Virus genome (UHGV): UHGV-0213490
Reading direction: 5' to 3' (one strand)
Origin: a virus
DNA: 25,438 bases
Shown here piece by piece: positions 1,307-21,337 of this stretch (its first letter is position 1; each line of letters opens with the position of its first letter). A model generated the notes under the pieces. The model did no database searches and had not been told where the DNA came from. It worked only from the letters and a program-made list of their open reading frames with translations. Made by a program: the position numbers and the translations under genes.

Positions 1307-3565
1307 TTAAAAATCAACCGGATTCGGGATCAGTTTTTGCCAGATTGCTGAAACGTATTTTGCCTGGTGACGGGCGTCATCCAGTGCATTATGGCGCTCA
1401 CCTTCGAATGGGATAGCAGTTCTGGCATCGAAGTCTATGGCTTTCCCCAGCTCAACGATTGTGCGTACATCGCGATCGTTGTAGTAGCGCCACGGGCAGG
1501 GGATACCCTGTCGTTCGTATGAACGACGTAAAATCACGTTGTCGAAGTTGGCTCCATTCCCCCAGACCTGGACAAAAAATTCACCGGAGTTTTCGTCGAT
1601 AAATTCCCGCAATTGCAGTAGTGCATCATCTAACGGAATTTCATCGGTCAGAAGGGCAGATTGCGCCTCGCGTGATTGCTTGAGCCACCATTTTATGGTG
1701 TCACGATCAATGATTCCGCCAGTAGTTTCCAGATCGATGGTCTTGCTAAATTCCGGCCCCATATCTCCGGTTTGCGGATCGAAAAATATTGCACCTATTG
1801 AGATAATCGGGGCATCAGGATTTTTTCCCATGGTTTCGAGGTCGATCATTAGATGGTCACACGTCCTGCTGGTGGATGTGATTTTGTGATGGCTGTTCAC
1901 CTTAACTGAGTGATCTGCCGCCTCGCCAGTTTCATTATCGCTGGCGTGGTCCTGAGCGCTGCCAGCATTCTCCTTGTGTGGATGTTCAGCGCCTTCCATT
2001 TCCTCCGGATCGTTTTCCTGAACTTCAACCTGATTCTCTTCATCGAATGTTTCCTGGTATGTTGCGTCGCCCATCACCGCGCCACAATCAGGGCAGTTGC
2101 CGCAACCGCTCTGACCGCAGGCGGTGCAGACTTTTTCCGGTTCCTGTTGCGCTACTGGTTCAGGCTGGCTGATATTGACTGCCTGCATAATTTTGTTTAC
2201 TTCGTCAGCGGTAACTTTTACCTGATTAACCGGATCTATCTGTGCCTGAGTATCCAGCGATTGCGTGTCCTGGCGATGTTCAGTTGTATCCGGTTCCATT
2301 GTTTCAGCCGTTGCCTGTTCATCTGCCATTGCGTCAGACGGTTGTGATTTTTCCTCATTATTTTTTTCTTCTTCTGTTTCGCGTTCAGCAGCCAGTTCGC
2401 GGTTAACTTCTTCCAGGATATCTTTTTCCGGTGTATGTCGTGCAGCAGTGAGAGTTTCCTCGGTGGGATGCTCGTGATCAGTCTCCGTTAAGTGGGCGTT
2501 GATATACTCCTGAAGGCGTCCCGGGTAGAGATAAAGTTCAGGGTGAGCACTTCGGATAAGTGCAAAAATAGCTGCACGGGAATAATCCCGAATACCAGTG
2601 ATTGCGCGAAGTGCTGCGGACCATTCTTTGAACGGACTTTCTTTCTTCCGGACGACTTCTTTTGCGCGACGATAAACGCTGCCCGGAATTTCATAAATAT
2701 TAAAATCCATCGGAAGTGTGGCCGCTGCAATCTCCACATCCAGCGTATCGAAGGTGTGTACTAAATTCGGATTGCGATCGGTTTTGTTCCCTCCACCGGC
2801 ATTAGCACCGGAAGCCGTGCGGGTGATACGAGAAACACGATTTCCTTTCATCCACTCGTTTGTCAGCAGACCGCGATCGGTGTAGTCAGCGTTCAGGTAT
2901 GCTTCGATGAAAGAAGTCATCACCCACAGTTCTGAATTTACGGGGGCGGGAAAAACACTGCCAGTATCCCGAACCAGTTTGTGGAGATCGCGAATTTCCA
3001 GTGGATCGAGCAGACTGGTTTTATGCGAAATAGCGAGGGCAGTAACAGTCGGCAGTTCTTCAGCCCGTGCAATGTGTAATGCCTGGAGTTCGTCGCGTGA
3101 AACGTGCGTTACCGGTTTTTCGCTGCCGCGTTGAGCAAGCCAGCGAATGGGTAGTTCCTGACCGGAAACCGGCAGGAGCATGTTCTCCTCAATCTCAGTC
3201 ATGTCTTCGCCGTTGACGTTGGTATTGTCAGTGCTGACTGGTTTGTCCTGAACAGAGGGCGAGGGCGCGATAAGTACCATTGTGATACCATCTTCCCCGC
3301 CTTTTTCGTAACGGTTGCAGAATTCGGTATCAAACACGCCTTCCGGAGGAAGGTCATTCACAACGGGTAAATGGACGCGAACAGGTTTTTTAAAATCCTC
3401 TTCGTCAAATCCGACATCGTCCATTGCGACAACACCGCGTGATATTGCAACCGATAATTTTTTTGCTGTGCGCCAGTAAAAACCGCCTTTAATCCCAAGG
3501 CGTTTTCTGACTTTGTCATTTTTGGCTTCGTAATATAGTGCAATTTCTTCTTTATCAGCGCTCAT
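1307..3565 (-). CDS. Large phage protein with C-terminal DnaQ-like (DEDDh) 3'-5' exonuclease domain
   Basis: 752-aa ORF; C-terminus has Exo I (MIDLETMG), Exo II (WGNGANFD) and Exo III ([13 protein letters not shown]) motifs; internal Cys cluster [16 protein letters not shown]; acidic linker. Confidence 0.8.
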
Positions 3566-8559: not shown

Positions 8560-9148
8560 CTATCAGGCACTGCGTGAGGCAATACAAAACTATCAGTCGA
8601 TGCTGGCGTGGTATGAGGCTATCCCGGATAGCCCAAACGCAGAGGTTGATTGTGATGAAGCTTTGGCTGCGTTTAAGCGTCAAATTCGTCACAGGGAAGT
8701 GGATATTATCGCCGATCTGCTGGATGAATGGGAATCCCAAAACAAGCGTATTGCAGAACTGGAGAAAAGCGAAGAGCAACCCATTAACGAGCGTGACCAT
8801 GCTGAGTCTGCTTTAGATGATATGTACTTTGCAGCAACCGGTAACAGGCCGGAGTGGAGCAACTGGTTCGGCTTTTCAGATGCTGTCGATGCCGTGGTTG
8901 ACAGAATTGCTGATTTAGAAGCTAAACAATGCATTGAAGAGATGAGTAAACAAAGTTGCGAAGCTCGGGAGCGTGATTTGTTTGAATCATGGGTAATGCA
9001 TTCAATTTGTATTTCCAAATCGACGCTTGAAGGATTGCGCACCGAAACTGGATATCGTAACGCGACCTTATCAGGAACAGACTTCAACCGAATGTGGGAA
9101 CAATGGAAATCTATCCGCGCCGCTGGCATTCGCATCAAAGGAGAGTGA
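8546..9148 (+). CDS. Ea22-like family protein
   Basis: GTG start after CAGGAGG; VSKIDYQALREAIQNYQSMLAWYEA resembles Ea22/ead-like prophage proteins from memory. Confidence 0.55.
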   Translation: MSKIDYQALREAIQNYQSMLAWYEAIPDSPNAEVDCDEALAAFKRQIRHREVDIIADLLDEWESQNKRIAELEKSEEQPINERDHAESALDDMYFAATGNRPEWSNWFGFSDAVDAVVDRIADLEAKQCIEEMSKQSCEARERDLFESWVMHSICISKSTLEGLRTETGYRNATLSGTDFNRMWEQWKSIRAAGIRIKGE

Positions 9149-9149
9149 C

Positions 9150-9506
9150 GTGGAAATAAAACCAGAAGATGAGTTAAGTAATATTGTTTTATTTCCGGTA
9201 AAAGAGGATGACCCACGTAATCAGGTTAATTTTCTTTATGAGCCATCGGAAAGACCATACTGCCATCACGCTTCTGTCCGGGTTGACGAAAAAGAGCGTC
9301 AGGTCCGCTGTAAAATCTGCGGTGCAGTTGTGGAGCCGTTTGACTGGATGCTCTCTGTGGCGAAAAGAGAAACCAGACTGGCAGATGATGTAAGGCTATT
9401 GCGCCAGGAGGAACAGGAAAGACGGAAAAATATAGAAAAGTTAATTCAGATTGAGCGTAACGCGAAAGCGCGGATACGCAGGGCGACGAAATCCAGAACT
9501 GAATAA
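9150..9506 (+). CDS. Hypothetical Zn-ribbon protein
   Basis: GTG start 2 nt after the upstream stop with AAGGAGAG RBS; CHH...CKICG motif; basic C-terminus. Confidence 0.5.
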   Translation: MEIKPEDELSNIVLFPVKEDDPRNQVNFLYEPSERPYCHHASVRVDEKERQVRCKICGAVVEPFDWMLSVAKRETRLADDVRLLRQEEQERRKNIEKLIQIERNAKARIRRATKSRTE

Positions 9507-9556
9507 ATAAATTTAGCACTGTAAATAAAATCAAATCCTTAACTGGAGGTATATCT

Positions 9557-9769
9557 ATGTTAAATACACAGAAAACCATTAATGCGGAAAAATATAACGA
9601 GTGGGTGAGGAAATTTTCTGAGCAGATTTTTAAAATTACTGGCGACGAGAATGCGGCAAAAAATGAATTAGAGCCGTGGACACCTGAAGGAGTCGAACCA
9701 AATTATTGCTGGTGGGATGTTGATCCAGTTGATGCTGCAAATGAAGCTATGAGTTATCACAACGATTAA
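9557..9769 (+). CDS. Hypothetical phage protein
   Basis: 70-aa ORF with GGAGG RBS. Confidence 0.5.
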   Translation: MLNTQKTINAEKYNEWVRKFSEQIFKITGDENAAKNELEPWTPEGVEPNYCWWDVDPVDAANEAMSYHND

Positions 9770-9801
9770 TGTCAGGAGGCCGCCCGAAAGGGCGGTAAGA
9801 A

Positions 9802-10020
9802 ATGACTACATTATTCAGAAAAGAATATCCGCGAAAAAGTAGAGCGACAGAATTTTTGTTTCTCATTCTGTTTATCGTGTTGATGATACCGATATCCCCG
9901 CTAATTTTTGTCTGGATAATCGTGAAAATAATTGAACCTATTATTGAGTTATATACCGATGTGATATGGGGACCATTCAACACACTACACAATAAAATTA
10001 ATCCGTATAAGGAAAGCTGA
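9802..10020 (+). CDS. Small hydrophobic membrane protein
   Basis: 72-aa ORF, AT-rich, two predicted TM segments; SD and ATG separated by a perfect CCGCCC-GAAA-GGGCGG hairpin. Confidence 0.45.
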   Translation: MTTLFRKEYPRKSRATEFLFLILFIVLMIPISPLIFVWIIVKIIEPIIELYTDVIWGPFNTLHNKINPYKES

Positions 10021-10021
10021 T

Positions 10022-10387
10022 ATGTCACTGACGAAAAAACAACGCGCAGAACTGCGCATGAAGTTCGGTGGTCGCTGCGCTTATTGCGGCTGCGAACTTG
10101 GCGAAAAGTGGCATGCAGACCATGTAAAACCGGTCATCCGTTTTGATGGAAATATGCTTCACCAGGAACGTGACGATATATCCAACATGGTTCCGGCATG
10201 CCACCCATGCAATCTGCACAAGCATTGCAGTAGTCTGGAAGATTATCGGCGAATTATCAGTGATGGTCGTCGTGAATTCCTTGCGTCCGGGAAAGGCAAA
10301 GCGCTGGTTCGTATGGGATTGGTTGAAATGAAATCTGACCCAGTTGTGTTCTGGTTTGAAAAATATCAAGAAGGGGCTACGGCATGA
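10022..10387 (+). CDS. HNH endonuclease
   Basis: 121-aa ORF with Zn-finger/HNH signature CAYCGC...HADHVKP...N...CHPCNLHKH. Confidence 0.8.
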   Translation: MSLTKKQRAELRMKFGGRCAYCGCELGEKWHADHVKPVIRFDGNMLHQERDDISNMVPACHPCNLHKHCSSLEDYRRIISDGRREFLASGKGKALVRMGLVEMKSDPVVFWFEKYQEGATA

Positions 10388-11199
10388 CCACTTTTACCAA
10401 TAGCAAACTAACAGACGAATACGTTTCAAATGCAACGTTGATTCGGCTCATTCTGTGGGCTGACCAGCACAATAGCCATTATGTTGTAGCGGCTCTGCGC
10501 GAGCTACAGGAGCGCCGCAAGGCTGATAGTGTGCCTGTAGAAATCAACGACGACATGGCTTACGCATTTCACCATGCGCTTTCTGACTCATCGCTTGGCT
10601 CTGATGAAATCGAAGAAATTAAAACCGGGTTGCGTGCTGCCTTTGCCAATGTCACCGTCCAGCCGGTGCTGATAGTGCCAGATGAAATCGAGCCAGACGA
10701 TAGCAATACGTTTGATTATGTTGATGGCTGGAACGCCTGCCGCGCCGCCATGCTTCAGAGTAACCAACCTGTAAGCCAAACTTACAACTTGCCAGAATTA
10801 ATCGAGGGCATGGAAGTTTCCATTGATGTAAGCACTTGTGATGCTGATTTAGGTAATCGCTATTTCGGCACCGTCACCGAGGCGTTAGAACTTGATACTG
10901 CCAAGAATGGCTACATCCTCCTGATTCAGGACGCAGAGCCAAACTTCGATGTAAATGGCAACTCTCCGGTAACTCCGGATGGTTGGATAAGCTGTAGTGA
11001 GCGAATGCCGGAAAAGGGCCAGAACGTGCTTATTTCGGTGAATTTCGATAGCTCTCTGGTTGAACCGCTAATATGCTCCGCACGCTATACCGGAAGCACC
11101 TTTCGGCGCGGAGATGCAACGATTAAGCCGGGTAATGGTATTGAGCAAGCAACTCACTGGATGCCGCTACCGGAACCACCGCAGGAGGTGAATCAATGA
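10384..11199 (+). CDS. DUF551 domain-containing phage protein
   Basis: 271-aa ORF coupled to the HNH gene (ATGA overlap); C-terminal WISCSERMPEKGQNVLISV is typical of DUF551. Confidence 0.65.
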   Translation: MTTFTNSKLTDEYVSNATLIRLILWADQHNSHYVVAALRELQERRKADSVPVEINDDMAYAFHHALSDSSLGSDEIEEIKTGLRAAFANVTVQPVLIVPDEIEPDDSNTFDYVDGWNACRAAMLQSNQPVSQTYNLPELIEGMEVSIDVSTCDADLGNRYFGTVTEALELDTAKNGYILLIQDAEPNFDVNGNSPVTPDGWISCSERMPEKGQNVLISVNFDSSLVEPLICSARYTGSTFRRGDATIKPGNGIEQATHWMPLPEPPQEVNQ

Positions 11200-11279
11200 C
11201 CTGGCCTGAGGCATTTACCACGGTAGGAATTGCGATGGCAGTGGCGATGGTGGTGTATTCGATTTGCCGTTGGGGATAA
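11196..11279 (+). CDS. 27-codon hydrophobic micro-ORF
   Basis: ATG overlaps the DUF551 stop; strong AGGAGG 7 nt upstream; encodes MTWPEAFTTVGIAMAVAMVVYSICRWG (single TM helix); followed by a terminator. Confidence 0.45.
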   Translation: MTWPEAFTTVGIAMAVAMVVYSICRWG

Positions 11280-11289
11280 CAAACAAAAA

Positions 11290-11316
11290 CCCCGGATTGA
11301 TGGTCCGGGGTTTTTG
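11290..11316 (+). terminator. Rho-independent terminator
   Basis: CCCCGGA-ttgatgg-TCCGGGG followed by TTTTT. Confidence 0.75.
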
Positions 11317-11653
11317 AAGGAAACAAAACAGAAACAGCAATTGCCGTTACCTGTTGTTATCATGGCAAGTAAACGTATCTCAGGCGAGCGCATTGCGCCG
11401 TTCTGACGCAGATAAACTAGCCTGGATAGATGGTGCTGGCAATAAAAAATAGCGTTTTCTTATCGGTGTCGGTAAGATTGCTGCGGGTGCTTGAGGCTGT
11501 CTGCCTCGGGCATGCCACTGTAAGGCAGACAGAGAAAAGCCCCAGTTAACATTACGCGTCCTGCAAGACGCTTAACATTAATCTGAGGCCCAATCTATGT
11601 CTCACAAATGTAGGTTAGCCTCTTACGTGCCGAAAGGCAAGGAGAAGCAGGCT

Positions 11654-11809
11654 ATGAAGCAGCAAAAGGCGATGTTAATCGCCCTGATCGTCATCTGTTT
11701 AACCGTCATAGTGACGGCACTGGTAACGAGGAAAGACCTCTGCGAGGTACGAATCCGAACCGGCCAGACGGAGGTTGCTGTCTTCGTGGACTACGAATCT
11801 GAGAAGTAA
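11654..11809 (+). CDS. hok: Hok/Gef-family type I toxin
   Basis: MKQQKAMLIALIVICLTVIVTALVTRKDLCEVRIRTGQTEVAVFVDYESEK: single TM plus conserved CE..R.G..EVA motif; AGGAGA RBS; in-frame upstream ATG at 11597 gives a mok-like extension. Confidence 0.85.
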   Translation: MKQQKAMLIALIVICLTVIVTALVTRKDLCEVRIRTGQTEVAVFVDYESEK

Positions 11810-11881
11810 GAGTGACTAGGCGGGAGAGTAATCTCCCGCCACCTCTGATGTGTCAGGCATCCTCAACGCACCCGCACTTAA

Positions 11882-11902
11882 CCCGCTTCGGCGGGTTTTT
11901 TC
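11882..11902 (+). terminator. Rho-independent terminator of the hok transcript
   Basis: CCCGC-ttcg-GCGGG plus TTTTTT; preceded by a GGCGGGAGAGTAATCTCCCGCC hairpin (11819-11840). Confidence 0.75.
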
Positions 11903-12021
11903 ACGTACTGTGGTTGTGAATACGATTGGTATTAGGCTATGCTAACAACATTAGCCTGACTAATTTTGTATTGACTTGATTTTTTGTTAAAGAACAGGAC
12001 GGAGAAGTAAGGGTACACCCA

Positions 12022-12201
12022 ATGAGCTACGCACTAAAAAAACACCCGCGATTGACTATTCCCCCTCGCGATAAAAGCGTTGTGGCAGCTCCGCGCCCGG
12101 CTATTGATGAAAATTGCACACATCGTGAGCAGGTGAAAAATGCTTTCGATTTCGGTTTTTCTCGTTACGAGAAGGCAATGGAAGAACTTTCAAAAGTGTA
12201 A
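12022..12201 (+). CDS. Candidate antitoxin/partner of the Fic/Doc toxin
   Basis: 59-aa ORF (MSYALKKHPRLTIPPRDKSVV...EKAMEELSKV) ending 10-19 nt before the Doc-like gene; below the ORF-track length cutoff; not recognisably Phd/YefM. Confidence 0.5.
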   Translation: MSYALKKHPRLTIPPRDKSVVAAPRPAIDENCTHREQVKNAFDFGFSRYEKAMEELSKV

Positions 12202-12210
12202 TAATGGGTA

Positions 12211-12705
12211 TTGTGCTCTATGGCTGAGATTGTTGAAGGAGTGCACTATCTTTCGGTTGATGATCTTACTGAAATCAATCGCCTTTTAATTGAGCTTCAA
12301 ACACCAGATGAACCTGTAGGTGTGCTGAGTGTTGATAATTTAAGTTCTTCTCAGGCCCGTCCCAGCATGGTTCGATGGTATGAACAGATCAATGACATGT
12401 TTGTACTGGCATCGGTATTGATTGAAAGTCTGATTCAGAATCATCCGTTTGCTAATGCGAACAAACGAACAGCTATGATGGCTGGTTACGTCTTCTTGTT
12501 GTTGAATGGCTATGAGTTAACAGCACCAGGCGATGAAATCGTGGAAATGGCAGAGGGACTGGCCTGCAAAACCTATACTCGAGAAGATCTCGAGAACTGG
12601 TTGTGTTATTGGTCTCGTGCGTATGACAGCCGGGAATTATGTAAAACAGGCGCAACTATTGTTTTGTATGAAACTATCAAGCTTAAAATAGAACAGCAAA
12701 ACTAA
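12211..12705 (+). CDS. doc: Fic/Doc-family toxin (death-on-curing-like)
   Basis: Doc-type Fic motif HPFANANKRTA; alternative ATG at 12220. Confidence 0.8.
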   Translation: MCSMAEIVEGVHYLSVDDLTEINRLLIELQTPDEPVGVLSVDNLSSSQARPSMVRWYEQINDMFVLASVLIESLIQNHPFANANKRTAMMAGYVFLLLNGYELTAPGDEIVEMAEGLACKTYTREDLENWLCYWSRAYDSRELCKTGATIVLYETIKLKIEQQN

Positions 12706-12720
12706 AGGTGCTTCCAATGA

Positions 12721-12745
12721 AAACCCGCTTCGGCGGGTTTTTTGT
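12721..12745 (+). terminator. Rho-independent terminator (second copy of the hok terminator sequence)
   Basis: AACCCGCTTCGGCGGGTTTTTT, identical over 22 nt to 11880-11901. Confidence 0.75.
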
Positions 12746-12818
12746 TTTACGTATTCTGGTTTACAATCCACAGGCCAGCCTGAACAACTGGCACCTGCTG
12801 CGCCAGCAGAGAAAACCG

Positions 12819-13091
12819 ATGGCGCACAATACCAAACATCACAATTCTGATACCGACCTTGCCAGCAGGCACGGGCGGTGTTCTCATGCATTCAAATATG
12901 ACTGGTACCAGCATGACCCCTGCACTGAAGAACAGGCCGAATGGCTGATTCAGAACTACCGCAGGCGTGGGTACGAGTTTCAGAAAGATCTCAGCTTCGA
13001 TCGTCGTCACTGGATAATCTCCGTCAGGCTCCCTTATTCCGAACGTCCGCCGCGTCCGTCCCGCACATTCCAGCAACGCATCTGGAGGTAA
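12819..13091 (+). CDS. Hypothetical protein
   Basis: 90-codon ORF from ATG 12819 ending 1 nt before the DUF968 gene start; Arg/His-rich. Confidence 0.4.
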   Translation: MAHNTKHHNSDTDLASRHGRCSHAFKYDWYQHDPCTEEQAEWLIQNYRRRGYEFQKDLSFDRRHWIISVRLPYSERPPRPSRTFQQRIWR

Positions 13092-13092
13092 C

Positions 13093-14142
13093 GTGCGGGT
13101 ATTGCTTCGACCTGTTCTGGTACCGGAACTCGGGCTGGTGGTCCTTAAGCCGGGTCGTGAATCCATGCGGGTATTTCATAATCCCCGGGTGCTGGTGGAG
13201 CCGGAACCGAAAAGCATGCGCGGTCTGCCGTCCGGCATTGTCCCTGTCGTTCGCCAGCCGCTGGCGGAGGATAAATCATTACAGCCATTTTTCAGCGATG
13301 AGCGGGTGATTCGTGCTGCCGGCGGCGCTGGTGCACTGTCTGACTGGCTCCTGCGTCATGTTAAATCCTGCCAGTGGCCTCATGGTGACTATCACCACAG
13401 CGAAACCGTCATACATCGTTACGGTACCGGCGCGATGGTGTTGTGCTGGCACTGCGACAACCAGCTGCGTGGCCAGACCTCCGAATCACTCGGGCAGCTT
13501 GCTCAACAAAATCTGGCAACCTGGATAATTGACGCCATCCGTCACGCAATAAATGGCGCGCAGGAGCGGGAGTTATCGCTGGCTGAATTGTACTGCTGGG
13601 CTGCTTTAAATAATGTGGTGGATGCCATAACCGAAAATATGGCGCGTCGAATCCTGAAACGTTCGGGTGAAAAAATCCTTTCCGTATACCGCGAAAGCGA
13701 CATCATACCGGGAGTGCAGACAGCCACCAGCATACTGAAGCAGCGCACAAAAAATATTGCGCTACCGCCTCACGTCCACCAGCAACAGAACTCACCGCAG
13801 GAAAAGGCGGTGGTAAGCATTGCCGTTGATCCGGATTCTCCGGAATCTTTCATGAAGCGCCCTAAACGTCGCCGCTGGGTTAACGAGAAATACACGCGCT
13901 GGGTAAAGATGCAGCCGTGTGCGTGTTGTGGTAAGCCAGCCGACGATCCCCATCACCTGATTGGTCATGGTCAGGGCGGAATGGGAACAAAATCCCACGA
14001 TATTTTCACGCTACCGCTGTGTCGGGAGCATCGCAACGAACTTCATGCGGATCCGCTGGCGTTCGAAGAAAAGCATGGTTCTCAGGTTGATTTAATTTTT
14101 CGTTTTCTTGATCACGCCTTTGCAACCGGTGTGCTTGGGTAA
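13093..14142 (+). CDS. DUF968 domain protein (YdfU-like, nin region)
   Basis: 349-aa ORF with GTG start after GGAGGTAA; C-terminal Cys/His cluster CACCGKPADDPHHLIGHGQGGMGTKSHD...CREHRNELH. Confidence 0.65.
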   Translation: MRVLLRPVLVPELGLVVLKPGRESMRVFHNPRVLVEPEPKSMRGLPSGIVPVVRQPLAEDKSLQPFFSDERVIRAAGGAGALSDWLLRHVKSCQWPHGDYHHSETVIHRYGTGAMVLCWHCDNQLRGQTSESLGQLAQQNLATWIIDAIRHAINGAQERELSLAELYCWAALNNVVDAITENMARRILKRSGEKILSVYRESDIIPGVQTATSILKQRTKNIALPPHVHQQQNSPQEKAVVSIAVDPDSPESFMKRPKRRRWVNEKYTRWVKMQPCACCGKPADDPHHLIGHGQGGMGTKSHDIFTLPLCREHRNELHADPLAFEEKHGSQVDLIFRFLDHAFATGVLG

Positions 14143-14154
14143 AAGGGGGTATTG

Positions 14155-14526
14155 ATGTGTATAGAGTTTGTTTTGCCTTACCCGCCGACGGTGAATACTT
14201 ACTGGCGACGTCGTGGCAGCACATATTTTGTATCAAAAGCCGGTGAGCGTTATCGCCGTGATGTGGCACTTATTGTTCGCCAGCAGCAACTGAAATTAAA
14301 CCTGTCCGGAAGGCTGGCGATAACGGTTATTGCCGAGCCGCCGGATAAGCGTCGTCGTGATCTGGACAATATCCTGAAAGCACCACTGGATGCGCTGACG
14401 CATGCGGGACTGCTTATCGACGACGAGCAGTTTGATGAAATTAATATTGTGCGCGGTCAGCTCGTTCCTGGTGGTCGGCTGGGCGTGAAGATTTGCGAAA
14501 TTAGAGGTGATAGTAATGGGGCGTGA
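14155..14526 (+). CDS. rusA: Holliday-junction resolvase RusA
   Basis: LPYPPTVNTYW...DKRRRDLDNILKAPLDALTHAGLLIDDEQ matches the RusA family signature; AAGGGGG RBS. Confidence 0.85.
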   Translation: MCIEFVLPYPPTVNTYWRRRGSTYFVSKAGERYRRDVALIVRQQQLKLNLSGRLAITVIAEPPDKRRRDLDNILKAPLDALTHAGLLIDDEQFDEINIVRGQLVPGGRLGVKICEIRGDSNGA

Positions 14527-14866
14527 TATGTATGAGGTTTTAGACCGCTGGGGGGCATGGGCTGCAGCAGAAAATAGTGGTGTCGATTGGCAACCGATAG
14601 CAGCGGGCTTCAAGGGGCTTTTACCACGCGGTAAAAAGTCACGTCTCCAGTGTGATGATGATGAGGGGCTCATGATCGATGGGTGCGTAGCTAGATTAAG
14701 AAAGTACAAACCAGAAGAGTATGAGTTAGTTATAGCCCATTTTGTGGTAGGGATTTCATTGCGAGCCATTGCTAAGAAGAGAAAGTGTTCGGATGGGACT
14801 ATCAGGAAAGAGTTGCAAACATCGCTTGGTTTCATTGAAGGCATTGTTTGCACTCTTGCCTGTTAA
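14516..14866 (+). CDS. Q: Late-gene antiterminator Q (QuuD/Q82-like)
   Basis: MGRDMYEVLDRWGAWAA...IAAGFKG...CDDDEG...C resembles E. coli QuuD-type Q proteins; GAGGTGA RBS; follows rusA as in lambdoid nin-Q order. Confidence 0.8.
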   Translation: MGRDMYEVLDRWGAWAAAENSGVDWQPIAAGFKGLLPRGKKSRLQCDDDEGLMIDGCVARLRKYKPEEYELVIAHFVVGISLRAIAKKRKCSDGTIRKELQTSLGFIEGIVCTLAC

Positions 14867-14887
14867 CTATTCTTAACTGTCTTCTAG

Positions 14888-15772
14888 TTATATTGGGCGC
14901 TTTGAATTCGATTTAAAGCGTCTTCCACTTATTCCAGAAACCCAAATGTCTTCCTCAAGAAAGTCAAGAAGGGCTTTTATTTCTTTTTTTGATGAAGGCA
15001 TGACAATTTTCTCAACGCCGCCAACTATTATGGTTTGTAAGGGGAATTTAACTTTAGCAGCTTCGGATTTAAACTTTGACATATTTGGGGGTGTTAGCAT
15101 CCCAGTCTGATTTATTAGTGTTACTTTATTTCTTATCACTGTATCTGCAACGGATTTTAGATCAAAACCTTGGGGAGTAGAAAATACACTAAGTTGACTA
15201 AATGCATTAAGTTCTTGGTCAGTAGCAGCAGAAAAATAGGACGACATGTCAAAAATGCTTCTTAGATTAAAGAAACTCTTAAATCGTATTGTATCATTGA
15301 TAATTATTGCAACTAGTTTATCATCAACATTAAAACCGATGCTATTAGCTTTACTAAAGGTAGTTTTGCTTGCAAAAAGCTTTCCAAAGAATGATTTTGA
15401 GGTATCTAAGATTTGTTTTTTGTTGAAAGTTTGTAGTGCAATAATATTGGGGTTTGCTGGCGCGTCAACACCAACAAATAATGCTTTAATATAACCAATA
15501 TCAATTTGGCTAGGATCCCAGATAGGCACGGCGGTAGGCCTATTGACTGCGTCAATCAGGCGTGCAGAATCAGTAAAGTTTTGTATTTCAAAACACTCAC
15601 TATGTTTTGGTGTATAACCGGCATAGAATGGTATCATATTGTTATGATGACTTTCAAAATATTGACGCTGTTGTTGGAAAATGGCCGTAACAGAAGTACT
15701 TGCTGTTGCATCAAGTTCGACTCTAACAATTCTCGTTGCAATTGTATTATCTATTACTGCAAAAAGTGCCAT
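14888..15772 (-). CDS. Unknown 294-aa soluble protein, gene 2 of AT-rich cassette (candidate defence effector)
   Basis: Long ORF in strongly AT-rich DNA on the opposite strand to the flanking phage genes; AAGGAT RBS; 5-nt gap from the upstream membrane gene; no motif I recognise. Confidence 0.7.
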   Translation of the reverse strand: MALFAVIDNTIATRIVRVELDATASTSVTAIFQQQRQYFESHHNNMIPFYAGYTPKHSECFEIQNFTDSARLIDAVNRPTAVPIWDPSQIDIGYIKALFVGVDAPANPNIIALQTFNKKQILDTSKSFFGKLFASKTTFSKANSIGFNVDDKLVAIIINDTIRFKSFFNLRSIFDMSSYFSAATDQELNAFSQLSVFSTPQGFDLKSVADTVIRNKVTLINQTGMLTPPNMSKFKSEAAKVKFPLQTIIVGGVEKIVMPSSKKEIKALLDFLEEDIWVSGISGRRFKSNSKRPI

Positions 15773-15777
15773 GGTTA

Positions 15778-16299
15778 TTATCCTTTAACATGTAGAAATG
15801 TGTAGTCTGTTAATTGAATAACTGTAAATTTGATATCTTTAATATCAGTAATGACTGATTTAGAAATCAATACAAAACCTACGCCGGTGTCATCTTCAGC
15901 TTCGTAAAATTTATAACCGATAAGTGACAATACTGGGTTAAAGTTATAGTTCTCGGAAAAGCTGATGTAAAATAACAATGACAAATAAAAGAATAACGCA
16001 TATGCTTTATTTTCAGCAATAGAATCTGTTCCTAGGAGAGGGAATAAATAGCTTAAGAAATAATTAGTTACTTCTTTGTTAGCTGGAGAAACTGAACTAA
16101 TATTTTTTGTCAGAGGTTCAAGTTGTTTCTCAGCATATTGAATCAGGCCTATTGCTAATAACCAACTTGCTATGCCAACGCATAAGCTATATTGCATCAG
16201 CCAAACCGTATCTTTTACATATCCAATAAAAAATAGAGTTGCGCAAACAGGTGCAATTGAGCTGGCCGTTAATAATAAGCGTGCTAATTTGTTCATCAT
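15778..16299 (-). CDS. Unknown 173-aa polytopic membrane protein, gene 1 of AT-rich cassette
   Basis: Three to four hydrophobic helices (LLLTASSIAPVCATLFFIGY, WLMQYSLCVGIASWLLAIGLIQY, YFLSYLFPLLG, AYALFFYLSLLFYISF) plus about 55-aa C-terminal tail; AAGGA RBS. Confidence 0.7.
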   Translation of the reverse strand: MMNKLARLLLTASSIAPVCATLFFIGYVKDTVWLMQYSLCVGIASWLLAIGLIQYAEKQLEPLTKNISSVSPANKEVTNYFLSYLFPLLGTDSIAENKAYALFFYLSLLFYISFSENYNFNPVLSLIGYKFYEAEDDTGVGFVLISKSVITDIKDIKFTVIQLTDYTFLHVKG

Positions 16300-16606
16300 G
16301 ATATCCTTTGTACTGTTTATGCATACAGCACTTTACATCATGTACTCCAAAGTATCTATCTTGTGAAGAATCTTACACTAAATACTACAGAAAAAGTTAA
16401 CGCGTACGCAAAAAGTATTATATCGTGTTAAGAGTGGTTACTTCGCCACACAGCTTAAACCCGCTCGACAGCGAGTTTTTTAGTGTCCGAAAAGCGGACC
16501 CAGCACGGTAAACGCGCTGGTGGTTGCGAATACTGGTCTTTAAGCTTGCTGGCTTTTTGGACAAGAGTTATTGGTATGTCACGTTAACCAGAAAAGGGAA
16601 AAAGAC

Positions 16607-16804
16607 ATGCTAAAACAGCAGGATATGACCGAAACCGCCAGAGTGGTGTTTAATGAGTTAAGCGTCACCGAACCGGCGACAGTCGGGGAAATTGCGCAGA
16701 ATACGTACCTTTCACGCGAACGCTGCCAGTTAATACTGACCCAGCTTGTTATGGCGGGTCTGGCAGATTATCAGTTCGGTTGTTACAGACGCCTTCCGCA
16801 GTGA
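16607..16804 (+). CDS. Small hypothetical protein (possible winged-helix DNA-binding)
   Basis: 65-aa ORF from ATG 16607 with AAAAGGGAAAAAG RBS; upstream of the methyltransferase. Confidence 0.4.
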   Translation: MLKQQDMTETARVVFNELSVTEPATVGEIAQNTYLSRERCQLILTQLVMAGLADYQFGCYRRLPQ

Positions 16805-16954
16805 AGGCTTTTTTATTTGTGGTAATGGGCGGCTGGTGGGTGTTAGCGGCACCTGCCAGCCATCTGCTCATGCGTTGGGGTCACAAGCAAACCTCAGGCC
16901 CATCTGCTTTGCGCAAAAGCAGAATGAGCCTATCAGAGAAGTGCTTATTGATCT

Positions 16955-18001
16955 ATGGCTAATACTGTAAAAATATCCAGTTGTGAGTCAATCAACGCTG
17001 ATTGCCTGGAATTTATCCAGACCTTACCGGAAAACTCTGTCGATCTGATAGTCACAGACCCGCCATACTTTAAAGTGAAGCCCGAGGGCTGGGATAACCA
17101 GTGGAAGGGCGACGATGATTACCTGAAATGGCTGGACCAGTGTCTGGCGCAATTCTGGCGGGTACTGAAGCCTGCCGGAAGTCTTTACCTGTTCTGTGGT
17201 CATCGCCTGGCATCTGATATCGAAATCATGATGCGTGAACGCTTTAATGTGCTGAACCACATTATCTGGGCGAAGCCGTCCGGGCGCTGGAACGGATGCA
17301 ACAAGGAAAGCCTGCGGACGTATTTCCCGGCAACAGAACGCATTCTGTTTGCAGAACATTATCAGGGGCCATACCAGCCCAAAAATGACGGCTATGCGGC
17401 AAAGGGGCGCGAGCTAAAACAGCACGTCATGGCCCCGCTGATTTCTTACTTTCGTGATGCGCGTGAATCACTGGGAATAACGTCAAAACAGATAGCGGAA
17501 GCCACCGGAAAGAAAAACATGGCTTCGCACTGGTTTGGTATCAGTCAGTGGCAGTTGCCGAACGAAGGCGATTATCTGAAATTACAGGCGTTGTTTGCGC
17601 GTGTTGCAGCAGAAAAACATCAGCGCGGTGAACTGGAAAAGCCACACCACCAGCTGGTCAGCACATACAGTGAACTGAACCGGCAATATGCCAGTCTGCT
17701 GGATGAGTACAAATCCCTGCGGCGTTATTTTTCCGTATCGGCTGCCGTTCCGTATACGGATGTCTGGACGCACAAGCCTGTGCAGTATTACCCCGGCAAA
17801 CATCCCTGTGAGAAACCGGCGGATATGTTGCGTCAGATAATTACCGCCAGCAGCCATCCGGGAGATTTGGTCGCTGATTTTTTTATGGGGTCGGGGTCAA
17901 CAATAAAAGCAGCATTATCGCTGGGAAGGCGTGCAATAGGTGTGGAACTGGAAGAAGAGAGATTTAACCAGACTGTAATTGAAATAAAAAATAATCGTTA
18001 A
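16955..18001 (+). CDS. Orphan DNA methyltransferase (beta-class N6-adenine/N4-cytosine)
   Basis: Motif IV DPPY (IVTDPPYF) precedes motif I FxGxG (DFFMGSGST); no adjacent restriction endonuclease. Confidence 0.85.
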   Translation: MANTVKISSCESINADCLEFIQTLPENSVDLIVTDPPYFKVKPEGWDNQWKGDDDYLKWLDQCLAQFWRVLKPAGSLYLFCGHRLASDIEIMMRERFNVLNHIIWAKPSGRWNGCNKESLRTYFPATERILFAEHYQGPYQPKNDGYAAKGRELKQHVMAPLISYFRDARESLGITSKQIAEATGKKNMASHWFGISQWQLPNEGDYLKLQALFARVAAEKHQRGELEKPHHQLVSTYSELNRQYASLLDEYKSLRRYFSVSAAVPYTDVWTHKPVQYYPGKHPCEKPADMLRQIITASSHPGDLVADFFMGSGSTIKAALSLGRRAIGVELEEERFNQTVIEIKNNR

Positions 18002-18170
18002 ATGTGTGTATCATCATTTCTGCATTTTATGAATAATAGAAATTTATACATATATTTACGAATATTGACACAGTTTTTAATTGAAAAAGTATCTGTCCTC
18101 ATTAATATTCCTTTTCGGTTCCGAGGGGGATGTAAAGCGCGGTCATTTTTATTTTTCCTGAGGAACCAAT

Positions 18171-18246
<76 letters not shown>

Positions 18247-18249
18247 TAT

Positions 18250-18324
<75 letters not shown>

Positions 18325-18685
18325 GCATTTGAAATAAGCCTTATTGTATTGCAGCACTGGCGTATTTTTATTACGTGGGAGCAGGTTGTTTTGAAAAAGC
18401 ATTCTGTTCTCTGGCTATGATTTGAGGCCAGGTTAGCCTCAGTGCTGATTTTTTTGCGACAGCAGAATGGTGCATTGCTGGTGGAGATTTTGTATTTCCT
18501 GGCAGGGTCGGTGATGCATCATTCTGGTGTTGTAAATAACACCACCGGGGTGTTCCTCAGAGCGAGGGTGGTTAAAAGAGTCGGTTTAACGGGAAATCAC
18601 AGTATTCATACAGGACGGAATACTTCGGGAGGCACCCGACACCTCGGTTTTATTACAATTAAGAATGTATTTCTTGCATTGACCA

Positions 18686-18711
18686 ACCGCCGTATCCGGC
18701 GGTTTTTTTTA
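18686..18711 (+). terminator. Rho-independent terminator
   Basis: CCGCCG-tatc-CGGCGG followed by TTTTTTTT. Confidence 0.7.
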
Positions 18712-18843
18712 TTCAGAATTCCGTTTCTTTATGGTTCGCTGCGGCGGGCCTTTTTCATATCTGCGCTTTACTCAACGTGTATTGAATCTGAATACATCAC
18801 ATAAAAGACATCGGCGGGTGCCTTTGACGGGGTGTTTTATTAC

Positions 18844-18866
18844 GGGCCGCTGGTGGCCCTTTTTTA
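18844..18866 (+). terminator. Rho-independent terminator just upstream of the lysis cassette
   Basis: GGGCC-gctggt-GGCCC followed by TTTTTT, 19 nt before the holin RBS. Confidence 0.7.
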
Positions 18867-18884
18867 TTTACAGGAGAAAAAAGT

Positions 18885-19274
18885 ATGTCTGAACCCTTAT
18901 CCGGTTCCGGCACGGCTGCGGCGCTCGGTGGGGCGACGGTATTCGGGCTGTTTACCGGAACGGATTTCGGGATTGTATTTGGTGCGTTCGCTGGTGCGTT
19001 GTTTGTGGCAACAATGCCGCAGACACTTTCAGCCTGGCGTGTGGCTGCACATTTTCTGGTGTCCTTTATTGTTGGTGTGCTTGGGGCGGATGTGATGGCG
19101 TCTTACCTGGTTGAAAAACTGAATCTCCACAGCACATCTCTCGACGCGCTTTGCGCGGTACTGGTATCGGTGGTGTCGGTGAAGATTCTCTCATTCATCC
19201 ACCAGCAGGATATCGCATCGCTGTTATCCGGGCTGTTCTCCCGTCTGCGGGGTGGAGGCGGTAATGTTAAGTAA
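18885..19274 (+). CDS. Putative holin (multi-TM membrane protein)
   Basis: 129-aa ORF with GGAGAAAAAAG RBS; Gly/Ala-rich TM helices; first gene of the lysis cassette. Confidence 0.55.
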   Translation: MSEPLSGSGTAAALGGATVFGLFTGTDFGIVFGAFAGALFVATMPQTLSAWRVAAHFLVSFIVGVLGADVMASYLVEKLNLHSTSLDALCAVLVSVVSVKILSFIHQQDIASLLSGLFSRLRGGGGNVK

Positions 19275-19292
19275 CCTTCCCGGATTACTGAT

Positions 19293-19541
19293 GTGGTGTT
19301 AAGCACGGTTATCGTGCTGACGCTCTTTTTTTATCGTCGTGGTGAGTCGAGACATAAACCGCTGATGTCGTGGCTGGCCTGGCTGCTGATGCTGCTTTAT
19401 GCCTTTGCGCCGCTTTGTTATCTGTGTGGTCGCTTTCCACCCGGTAACTGGCTGGTCGTCCTGATTAACCTAGTGTTCTGCGTGCTGGTGATACGAGCAC
19501 GCGGGAACGTATCAAGAATCCTTGTATTACGAAGGCGCTGA
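19293..19541 (+). CDS. Small membrane protein in lysis cassette (possible holin/antiholin partner)
   Basis: GTG start at 19293 or ATG at 19365; two hydrophobic helices; ends 1 nt before the endolysin ATG. Confidence 0.4.
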   Translation: MVLSTVIVLTLFFYRRGESRHKPLMSWLAWLLMLLYAFAPLCYLCGRFPPGNWLVVLINLVFCVLVIRARGNVSRILVLRRR

Positions 19542-19542
19542 T

Positions 19543-20088
19543 ATGAAGTCGAAAGATGAAATTTTTGACGAAATTCTGGGAAAAGAGGGCGGTTACGTCA
19601 ATCACCCGGATGATAAAGGTGGTCCGACTAAATGGGGCATCACTGAAAAAGTTGCCCGTGCACACGGTTATCAGGGCGATATGCGTGACCTGACGCGTGG
19701 GCAGGCGCTGGAAATACTCGAGGCGGACTACTGGTACGGACCACGATTCGACCAGGTTGAGGACCTGTCTCCTGATATTGCCGCAGAGTTGTGCGATACG
19801 GGCGTGAACATGGGGCCAACTGTGGCGTCCAGAATGCTTCAGCGCTGGCTGAACGTTTTCAACCTGCGCGGGAAACTCTATCCGGATATGGATGCTGATG
19901 GACGCATCGGGCCGCGTACTCTTAATGCATTACGGGCATATCTGAAAAATCGCAGCAGGGATGGTGAACTGGTACTGGTGAAAGCCCTGAACTGTACGCA
20001 GGGCGAGCGTTATCTGGAGCTGGCAGAGAAACGCGAGGCCAATGAGTCGTTTGTCTATGGCTGGCTGAAAGAGCGCGTGGTGGTTTAA
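19543..20088 (+). CDS. Endolysin, GH108-type muramidase with peptidoglycan-binding domain
   Basis: MKSKDEIFDEILGKEGGYVNHPDDKGGPTKWGIT is the typical GH108 N-terminus; C-terminal PG-binding-like region; alternative upstream ATG at 19522. Confidence 0.8.
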   Translation: MKSKDEIFDEILGKEGGYVNHPDDKGGPTKWGITEKVARAHGYQGDMRDLTRGQALEILEADYWYGPRFDQVEDLSPDIAAELCDTGVNMGPTVASRMLQRWLNVFNLRGKLYPDMDADGRIGPRTLNALRAYLKNRSRDGELVLVKALNCTQGERYLELAEKREANESFVYGWLKERVVV

Positions 20089-20184
20089 AAACTGACACTG
20101 AAGTGCTGAACACCCTCAACTCATGCAGGCTCTTTTCTGGGGCTACGATGAGCGAAAGTAAGGGGCATAGCATCAGATAGCAAA

Positions 20185-20220
20185 AACCCCGGCTGCGGTA
20201 ACAGTCCGGGGTTTTCTGTT
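20185..20220 (+). terminator. Rho-independent terminator after the endolysin
   Basis: CCCCGGCTG-cggtaa-CAGtCCGGGG followed by a T-rich run. Confidence 0.65.
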
Positions 20221-20248
20221 TCTGGCCTTGGGTAAGGCAAAGGAGAAC

Positions 20249-20431
20249 ATGAGGAAGTATAAACTAATTCTGTTGAGGTTGACTATGAAAAACGGCCTTG
20301 AATTGAAAGCGCCTGTAACTGATGACATCAGCAGAGCGGTGGCTTTTGCCATTAAGTGGGTGGCGGTCGGTATCACTGTGTCTCCGATTCTGTATGGGAT
20401 GGCAAAATTGATCATTGCTGTGAAATCGTAA
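20249..20431 (+). CDS. Small protein with C-terminal TM helix
   Basis: 60-aa ORF with AAGGAGAA RBS; C-terminal AVAFAIKWVAVGITVSPILYGMAKLIIAV. Confidence 0.45.
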   Translation: MRKYKLILLRLTMKNGLELKAPVTDDISRAVAFAIKWVAVGITVSPILYGMAKLIIAVKS

Positions 20432-20448
20432 GTGGGGCAGGGGTAAAT

Positions 20449-20583
20449 ATGTCAGATAGCATTATAAAACTGGCGCGAATTCTCTGTGTGGTTGTTGGCC
20501 TTTCATTTTCAGCAATGTTGGTTGCCATTTTCATTTCCACCGCCTGGCGAGTATTGAGCCTATCCGGATTGATTGGTGGATAG
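20449..20583 (+). CDS. 44-aa single-TM micro-protein
   Basis: ATG 20449 after GGGGCAGGGG; MSDSIIKLARILCVVVGLSFSAMLVAIFIST. Confidence 0.4.
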   Translation: MSDSIIKLARILCVVVGLSFSAMLVAIFISTAWRVLSLSGLIGG

Positions 20584-20587
20584 TGAG

Positions 20588-20770
20588 ATGAAGCGAAAAC
20601 ACTGGACACACAGAATGCCGCGAACGGCGGCGAAATGGGCACTGGTAGCGATACTGGTGCCTTTTTTCCTGGTGGGATGCGTCAGCCTGGATAAGGCGCG
20701 CCAGCTTTTCGATACAGCTTCTCAGATCTGTGAAATTGTCGACGGTGTTCGGCAGTGTATGCAGAACTGA
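20588..20770 (+). CDS. Small lipoprotein
   Basis: 60-aa ORF with signal peptide and lipobox (ALVAILVPFFLVGC); two further Cys in the mature part. Confidence 0.5.
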   Translation: MKRKHWTHRMPRTAAKWALVAILVPFFLVGCVSLDKARQLFDTASQICEIVDGVRQCMQN

Positions 20771-20944
20771 TCGCCTGTAAGAGCAGAATATTTTGCTGAA
20801 AAATGAAGGATGCGCCGGCGTCCGGAAAGCATGAAATTCTGTGTTTGTGGCTACTCAATAAAATAAATTCTTTCTGTCTGCGCGAATACTCAAATGTTGA
20901 TCAGCGCCCGGGGCGGTGACGGGCTTCGATATCAGGAGAAGATA

Positions 20945-21337
20945 ATGGAAAAGAAAGAAGACAAACCAATGGTAATTGGTGCTGTGGCTGTTCCGTTTAA
21001 GTTTGAACTGTCACAACTGGTGGAGATGCGCATCAGTGATGAATGGGGTGAGGTTAAAGCTCGCGCGCAGTATGCGGATGGCGAAAACCAGTACTTGATC
21101 CACTACAAGGCTGCTGATGGTCGCGCCACAACGGCGTGGTTTGGTGAGTCAATGCTGGAAGCAACAGAAGATGATCGCCATCCGGGCTGTCCGGTATTTG
21201 CCGGTATGAAATTACCGGAAGGTGCAGTTGAACTGCAGCCGGGTGAGGTGTTCGTAATGTCAGAAGTCATTGATGGCAAACCGCAGTATTCACGTATTGA
21301 AACTAACGGCAAGGACGTTTGTCTGGTTAGCAAGTAA
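20945..21337 (+). CDS. Hypothetical protein upstream of cos
   Basis: 130-aa ORF from ATG 20945 (MEKKEDKPMVIGAVAVPF...) with AGGAGAAGA RBS. Confidence 0.5.
   Translation: MEKKEDKPMVIGAVAVPFKFELSQLVEMRISDEWGEVKARAQYADGENQYLIHYKAADGRATTAWFGESMLEATEDDRHPGCPVFAGMKLPEGAVELQPGEVFVMSEVIDGKPQYSRIETNGKDVCLVSK

Follow-up and report, generated by a model that had tools for sequence, protein, structure and literature searches.

Kiwa is an anti-phage defence system that was reportedly described by Doron et al. in 2018 from Escherichia coli O55:H7 RM12579. Published work on its two genes, kwaA and kwaB, has found that protection from phages and from conjugation requires both, that cells carrying Kiwa survive infection (no abortive infection was found), that KwaB is inhibited by the phage protein Gam, and that about half of Kiwa loci are located on mobile elements, including about 198 prophages (PMC11785009). 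Here, we analyzed the 25,438-nt virus genome UHGV-0213490 (the window, i.e. that whole stretch of DNA), in which a reading of the letters alone (the original prediction) had singled out a two-gene cassette next to the antiterminator gene Q as a candidate undescribed defence or abortive-infection system. The analysis revealed that the cassette is a kwaA-kwaB operon, that is, a defence system of the Kiwa type. It is a member of a clade of Kiwa with short proteins, found mainly in Enterobacterales, and is carried here as cargo by a defective lambdoid prophage. As a whole, the locus is best explained as a Kiwa operon travelling as prophage cargo, with a mechanism assigned by homology, the locus anatomy described below, and a predicted regulation by LexA, and we give this explanation a probability of about 0.9. 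As PADLOC, Pfam, and RefSeq annotation already cover this clade of Kiwa, the finding is not a new one and carries little weight by itself.

The cassette and its identity as Kiwa

The cassette is composed of two open reading frames (ORFs) on the minus strand, which the ORF listing of the window places 5 nt apart, each preceded by its own AAGGA Shine-Dalgarno sequence (16304-16308 for kwaA and 15781-15785 for kwaB), exactly as the original prediction had described them. The features are as follows:

15778-16296, minus strand: kwaA, encoding a 172-aa membrane protein with four transmembrane helices and a cytoplasmic beta-barrel (15778-16299 in the 173-aa reading)
14888-15772, minus strand: kwaB, encoding a 294-aa soluble protein with a DUF4868/KwaB domain, the DNA-binding effector of Kiwa
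about 14867-16390, no strand: AT-rich inserted cargo segment (34.3% GC) containing kwaB, kwaA, and their predicted promoter and operator

The second ATG of kwaA, at 16296 (172 aa), is a likelier start than the first one, at 16299 (173 aa), since it is the start used by the homologues and by the Prokaryotic Genome Annotation Pipeline (PGAP). The cassette has a GC content of 34.4%, compared with 47.6% in the remaining window, so the marked AT-richness noticed at the outset is real. The inserted segment is delimited on the left by the stop codon of Q, which lies 21 nt from that of kwaB, as had been noted before, and on the right by the point where loci with differing cargo start to align. The longest stop-free run in the cassette is 298 codons, while 1000 shuffles of the same DNA gave a mean of 68 and a maximum of 190. 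A search of Rfam with the cassette revealed no RNA family.

Both proteins were compared with the PADLOC collection of defence models. The KwaA model PDLC00216 matched with an E value of 1.9e-83 (277 bits) over residues 1 to 172 of its 173 positions, and the KwaB model PDLC00225 matched over its full length (E value of 1.4e-149, 495 bits). Such near-perfect, full-length matches indicate that the clade had been catalogued as Kiwa by 2023. Even with E values of up to 1 allowed, the PADLOC scan returned only Kwa models and no other defence family, RexAB and Abi included. In Pfam, KwaB (PF16162, formerly DUF4868) was recognized in residues 108 to 281 of the 294-aa protein with 30.6 bits against a cut-off of 26.3, and no RexA, RexB, or Abi match was found. 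The Pfam set that was run on the window proteins contains no KwaA model, so the scan was uninformative for the kwaA product and gave just one meaningless weak match. The family name KwaA (PF28043) comes instead from precomputed annotations of homologues, being assigned to a 99%-identical homologue (P0089) and to all relatives. In RefSeq, the 99%-identical copies of the two proteins are named 'Kiwa anti-phage protein KwaB-like domain-containing protein' and either 'KwaA family protein' or 'hypothetical protein'; PGAP uses the latter two names because the clade is divergent. The original prediction was thus right to compare the cassette with Kiwa, which it proves to be by PADLOC, Pfam, and fold. 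Also correct was its description of a two-gene cassette for defence, acquired horizontally, in which a membrane protein is paired with a soluble one. On the other hand, the system is not an undescribed one, as PADLOC, Pfam, and RefSeq/PGAP all recognize it, and a kinship with RexAB or Abi systems had to be dropped, as no such model matched.

The cassette is present at an identity of at least 95% in 33 of 5426 complete E. coli genomes, and a more distant relative was found in 38 others. Wherever genes were called in loci of the clade (nine other genera or species and a second E. coli element), kwaA precedes kwaB. When both are compared over one set of taxa, KwaA turns out to be the better conserved protein, the identities to the window proteins being 78% (KwaA) versus 62% (KwaB) in Salmonella, 73% versus 52% in Proteus mirabilis, and 68% versus 49% in Dickeya. 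KwaB, the DNA-binding soluble partner, evolves faster than the membrane sensor KwaA.

The clade is far from the solved Kiwa proteins, and searches of Protein Data Bank (PDB) sequences with the single proteins and with family profiles found no Kiwa chain; both structures were therefore predicted, and the link to the solved ones is provided by fold comparison alone. AlphaFold2 (AF2) models were built from family alignments (predicted local distance difference test score of 78.3 for KwaB and 77.5 for KwaA) and compared with the PDB by Foldseek. For KwaB, the top five matches were all solved KwaB chains (9nyu, 9mrx_D, 9mtn), with a probability of 1.00, E values of 7.5e-6 to 3e-4, template modelling (TM) scores of 0.48 to 0.55, 307 to 321 aligned columns, and 11 to 13% identity, while the next match had an E value of about 1. 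The fold tested, an N-terminal Rossmann-like (alpha/beta) domain followed by the C-terminal DUF4868, matched solved KwaB over its full length. For KwaA, the top six matches were likewise all solved KwaA chains (9mrx_A, 9mrg, 9mrr; probability of 1.00, 17 to 18% identity), and the TM scores with 9mrx_A were 0.73/0.66. Hydropathy was analyzed as well, and the AF2 model placed helices at residues 2-28, 32-59, 76-96, and 98-114 and strands at 62-72 and 130-170. This layout of four helices, a beta-hairpin in the first cytoplasmic loop, and C-terminal strands is that of the published description (PMC11785009), and it bears out the earlier view of the first gene product as a polytopic membrane protein with a soluble tail, the beta-rich strands being at residues 130 to 170.

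A mechanism can be proposed by transfer from the work on other Kiwa systems (PMC11785009). By analogy, KwaA would form a tetramer in the inner membrane, and KwaB dimers would dock on its cytoplasmic beta-barrel, giving a supercomplex. A membrane disturbance where a phage attaches, DNA is injected, or conjugation takes place would activate this complex, upon which KwaB would bind the incoming DNA via DUF4868. The DNA-bound KwaB may then stall replication and thereby block late gene expression, the cell not being killed. An abortive-infection mechanism, as originally proposed, is rejected, since the published Kiwa is non-abortive (PMC11785009).

The cassette agrees with Kiwa in its domains, in the fold of both proteins over their full length, and in the gene order of the operon, and it falls short at the strict equivalog threshold alone. 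Several points nevertheless weigh against our interpretation. The identity to the solved Kiwa proteins is just 12 to 18%, the Pfam KwaB score barely exceeds its threshold, and KwaA gave 45.7 bits with the NCBIfam equivalog NF041622, of which the cut-off is 100. In addition to the PDB searches, which were empty, the AF2 models are only moderately confident, and KwaB superimposed with a TM score of about 0.5 and a root-mean-square deviation of about 8 Å. We know of no experimentally tested member of the clade, to which the tested ECOR8, ECOR12, and D9 systems may or may not belong. Furthermore, the host prophage is defective, and the expression of the cassette, the binding of LexA, and the location of the late promoter (the latter two being considered below) are predictions.

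The predicted promoter of kwaAB and a predicted LexA operator

The region upstream of kwaA contains two overlapping predicted elements:

16330-16358, minus strand: predicted kwaAB promoter, with a -35 hexamer TAGATA (16353-16358), a 17-nt spacer, and a -10 hexamer TAAAGT (16330-16335)
16311-16330, minus strand: predicted LexA operator TGCTGTATGCATAAACAGTA, which agrees with the consensus TACTG(TA)5CAGTA at 16 of 20 positions

The final T of the -10 hexamer is the first base of the LexA box. The kwaA upstream regions of E. coli, Proteus, and Salmonella are otherwise diverged and share a CTGT-N8-ACAG palindrome, which occurs as a single site in the whole 25.4-kb window. All loci used in this comparison were drawn from the short-protein Kiwa clade rather than from canonical (O55:H7-type) Kiwa. 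In 10 of 12 lineages that were fetched individually, the box lies roughly 30 to 45 nt upstream of kwaA, irrespective of the genomic context, and in a shuffle control the observed match was reached in 0 to 1 of 2000 shuffles for nine of these ten boxes and in 7 of 2000 for the weakest one, that of Morganella. We then turned to viral contigs, where a scan of IMG/VR with the KwaA alignment yielded 61 loci. The box was found in every locus with upstream sequence (56 of 56), which corresponds to 33 of 33 distinct upstream regions with KwaA identities from 100% down to 37%; its consensus was TACTGTATA.A.AaACAGTa, and the flanks were unconserved. When 31 upstream regions were anchored on the box, a promoter pattern emerged in which TAnnnT abuts the box and a TGGATA/TAGATA-like hexamer follows 17 nt further upstream. 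A consensus promoter scan reported nothing upstream of kwaA, because the window copy matches 8 of 12 positions and the threshold of the scan was 9 of 12. The palindrome was also considered as a terminator hairpin; this was rejected, as the half-sites alone are conserved and the spacer is not self-complementary.

A canonical LexA box overlapping the -10/+1 region of the kwaAB promoter predicts repression by LexA and induction by DNA damage, so that expression of the operon would be SOS-inducible. DNA damage induces prophages too, in the same and in neighbouring cells. No link between Kiwa and LexA or the SOS response was found in open-access papers and preprints, and the other cargo cassettes that occupy the same genomic slot (see below) have no such LexA box.

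The conservation of the operator also bears on whether the cassette might be a silent or decaying passenger of a cryptic prophage, devoid of any current function. Such a state would be in keeping with the loss of the head and tail genes from the prophage and with the predicted LexA operator, which would hold basal expression low. However, neither reading frame is interrupted, although AT-rich DNA such as this abounds in stop codons, the cassette is at least 95% identical in the 33 complete E. coli genomes mentioned above, and the operator half-sites have been kept across 33 diverged upstream regions, which points to purifying selection. We consider a passenger of this kind very improbable.

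The insertion site behind Q and its other occupants

Two features frame the Kiwa operon:

14507-14866, plus strand: antiterminator Q (Pfam PF06530, E value of 2.9e-45), convergent with kwaB
16391-16481, plus strand: putative late promoter/Q-utilisation site, short leader, and terminator hairpin

The operon directly follows the stop codon of Q, in convergent orientation, and appears to bring its own promoter. The segment 14521-16464 of the window, comprising Q, Kiwa, and about 165 bp beyond kwaA, is 97.8% identical to a prophage (L001) with otherwise unrelated flanks. When loci differing in cargo were aligned, the cargo-specific DNA was seen to stop at about 16390, and in a cargo-free ('empty') prophage, L006, the conserved element starts 15 nt past the Q stop codon. 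This element has a constant order, namely a variable part of 30 nt, the invariant TGTTAAGAGTGGTTACTTCGCCACACAGCTTAAACCCGC, a hairpin with a locus-varying stem, and a T run. The core TGTTAAGAGTGGTTACTTCGCCACACAGCTTAAACCCGC and the hairpin were found in all ten loci compared (10 of 10), and in the window a terminator scan located the stem-loop at 16463-16476, with the T run extending to 16481. Copies of the conserved element were found in over 1000 E. coli genomes and 264 phage records. Most of these records are of Shiga toxin (Stx)-converting phages, where the methylase, the tRNAs, and stx are located downstream of the element. It was unannotated in every record examined.

The variable part of the element contains an 8- to 9-bp palindrome that changes with the Q allele. 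The palindrome is GCGTACGC where Q is at least 71% identical to that of the window, GCGGTCCGC where the identity is 54 to 57%, and ACGATCGT where it is 46%. Judged by its sequence, the element at 16391-16481 probably comprises the late promoter with the Q-binding site, a short leader behind it, and a terminator. In that case, Kiwa has probably entered between Q and the site at which Q acts, and the cassette would lie outside the late unit and be transcribed divergently from it. The original prediction had placed the cassette in the Q-to-lysis interval of a lambdoid prophage, which is correct, and had it running antisense to the late operon. The opposite orientation to Q and the late genes holds, but the cassette is most probably upstream of the late promoter; a location within and antisense to the late transcription unit is rejected, as the conserved promoter-like element is located beyond the cassette.

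The gap between the Q stop codon and the late-promoter-like element is a cargo slot, which in related prophages and phages, including a Stx2a phage and Shigella phage SfII, is occupied by varied AT-rich (29 to 38% GC) minus-strand cassettes. The slot was delimited in the following loci:

window 14867-16390: Kiwa
L002:1480-2941: 308-aa and 182-aa proteins
L003:3360-5760: slot delimited
L004:2129-3459: 273-aa and 161-aa proteins
L005:2046-3434: DUF6731 protein and 147-aa protein
L014:889-2452: 343-aa and 179-aa proteins
L015:845-2459: PDC-M53

Five slot cassettes are pairs of a 270- to 343-aa soluble protein and a 147- to 194-aa protein with several hydrophobic segments, and these have no detectable similarity to one another or to Kiwa. 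The SfII cassette matches the PADLOC candidate PDC-M53, and another cassette is a trio with a metallo-beta-lactamase fold; apart from these two and Kiwa, the slot cassettes gave no match. The slot in related phages such as the Stx2a phage and SfII holds uncharacterised pairs of a soluble protein and a four-helix membrane protein. For the discovery of new defence systems, the slot cassettes that have no recognised family are more promising than the flagged one.

The clade is habitually found next to Q. Among viral loci with enough downstream sequence, Q was convergent to kwaB in 50 of 59, and in the closest cases the Q match starts a few nucleotides past the kwaB stop codon. The same arrangement was found in Klebsiella, Serratia, Proteus, Morganella, and Enterobacter, and also in one further species, with a PF06323-type Q. 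Settings away from Q comprise a P4-like satellite, a neighbourhood of DarT/NADAR genes, and an integrase-flanked island. The Rahnella copy (L022:964-3911) is non-prophage and adjoins DarT and NADAR (DarG-like) genes, and the copy of E. coli FORC_042 (L025:1832-8044) resides in a P4-like satellite at tRNA-Leu; the LexA box is kept in both.

The frequent proximity to Q suggests a tie to the phage life cycle, and proteins with a Kiwa-like fold could accordingly do a different job here, e.g. a superinfection exclusion that the phage switches on only during SOS-triggered induction and that protects its own lytic cycle from competitors, or their trigger or target may differ from that of canonical Kiwa. 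The universal occurrence of the LexA box in the clade is compatible with such a role, as is the distance from the characterised proteins (12 to 18% identity, below the NCBIfam equivalog cut-off). Against it stand the Kiwa fold over the full length of both proteins, the conserved gene order, and the settings away from Q, which fit a general defence module; moreover, excluding other phages is a form of defence anyway. We regard a separate function as quite unlikely, and Kiwa carried as prophage cargo remains our preferred explanation. As to the two more specific proposals taken jointly, i.e. that the short-protein Kiwa clade is SOS-wired (kept off by LexA until DNA damage) and that the gap between Q and the late promoter is an undescribed exchange slot for defence cargo, we judge the chances to be slightly better than even.

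The window itself is a defective lambdoid prophage, which extends over 1-24613 and has lost its head and tail genes. Its genes include an integrase, a RecE-like exonuclease, hok/sok, DUF968, RusA, Q, Kiwa, a DNA methylase, two tRNAs, a holin, and a GH108 lysin. After the lysis genes, only a DUF1441 protein, a C-terminal fragment of a tail fibre, and a tail-fibre assembly gene are left, and tRNA-Ser(TGA) and hyaA lie beyond. At most 63% of the region 9000-21000 is covered by any one complete E. coli genome, which makes the prophage a mosaic. Other features of the window are:

1307-3565, minus strand: 752-aa protein with an exonuclease VIII (RecE-like) region and a C-terminal Rv2179c-like 3'-5' exoribonuclease domain
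11485-11659, plus strand: hok/sok-type toxin-antitoxin (Rfam sok antitoxin RNA, 118 bits)
16571-18324, plus strand, downstream of the promoter-like element: 77-aa ORF, hairpin, N6/N4 DNA methylase, tRNA-Thr(TGT), and tRNA-Gly(TCC)

The 77-aa ORF gave a weak winged-helix match, and the terminator-like hairpin is located at 16791-16808. Stx phages share this layout of a small ORF, methylase, and tRNAs, which are then followed by stx.

Comparison with described systems

The predicted LexA control offers a concrete rule, open to testing, as to when a membrane-embedded defence complex is produced. In plaque assays that rely on the native promoter, the activity may accordingly be underestimated when the SOS response is off and the operator unmutated. 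The position of the cassette between Q and its apparent cognate promoter links it to a unit that must be co-inherited, and this linkage may explain the spread of the cassette among mosaic lambdoid prophages.

The system shares its main features with the characterised Kiwa of O55:H7 RM12579 and of ECOR strains (Zhang, Todeschini et al., PMC11785009; PDB 9mrx, 9mrg, 9mrr, 9nyu, 9mtn): (i) a two-gene operon with kwaA before kwaB, (ii) a KwaA with four transmembrane helices and a cytoplasmic beta-barrel, (iii) a KwaB with an N-terminal alpha/beta domain followed by DUF4868, and (iv) carriage by mobile elements and prophages. What sets the clade apart is its sequence distance (12 to 18% identity, below the NCBIfam equivalog cut-off), its shorter proteins (172 and 294 aa in the window versus about 195 and 315 residues in the solved chains), a predicted SOS operator on its promoter, a kind of control that we did not find described for Kiwa, and its habitual slot right after Q. 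From the PADLOC models PDLC00216 and PDLC00225 there is no difference at the sequence level, and PADLOC is silent on regulation and insertion site.

The Tai/Ati system of phage phi80 (PMC11364771) resembles the present one in being a prophage-borne defence located near Q and opposing the late genes, and the expression of Tai has been proposed to follow the phage transcription programme (PMC11364771). However, the proteins are unrelated, Tai acts by interfering with tail assembly, and Tai lies inside the Q-controlled region, whereas Kiwa here appears to be upstream of the late promoter. Finally, stx and other morons of the Q-to-lysis region share the same broad interval with the cassette, and both are AT-rich and horizontally acquired. 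In L007 and L014, stx shares the strand of the late genes and is located downstream of both the conserved promoter-like element and the tRNA genes. The Kiwa cassette, by contrast, is found upstream of the element, is encoded on the other strand, and has a predicted promoter of its own.

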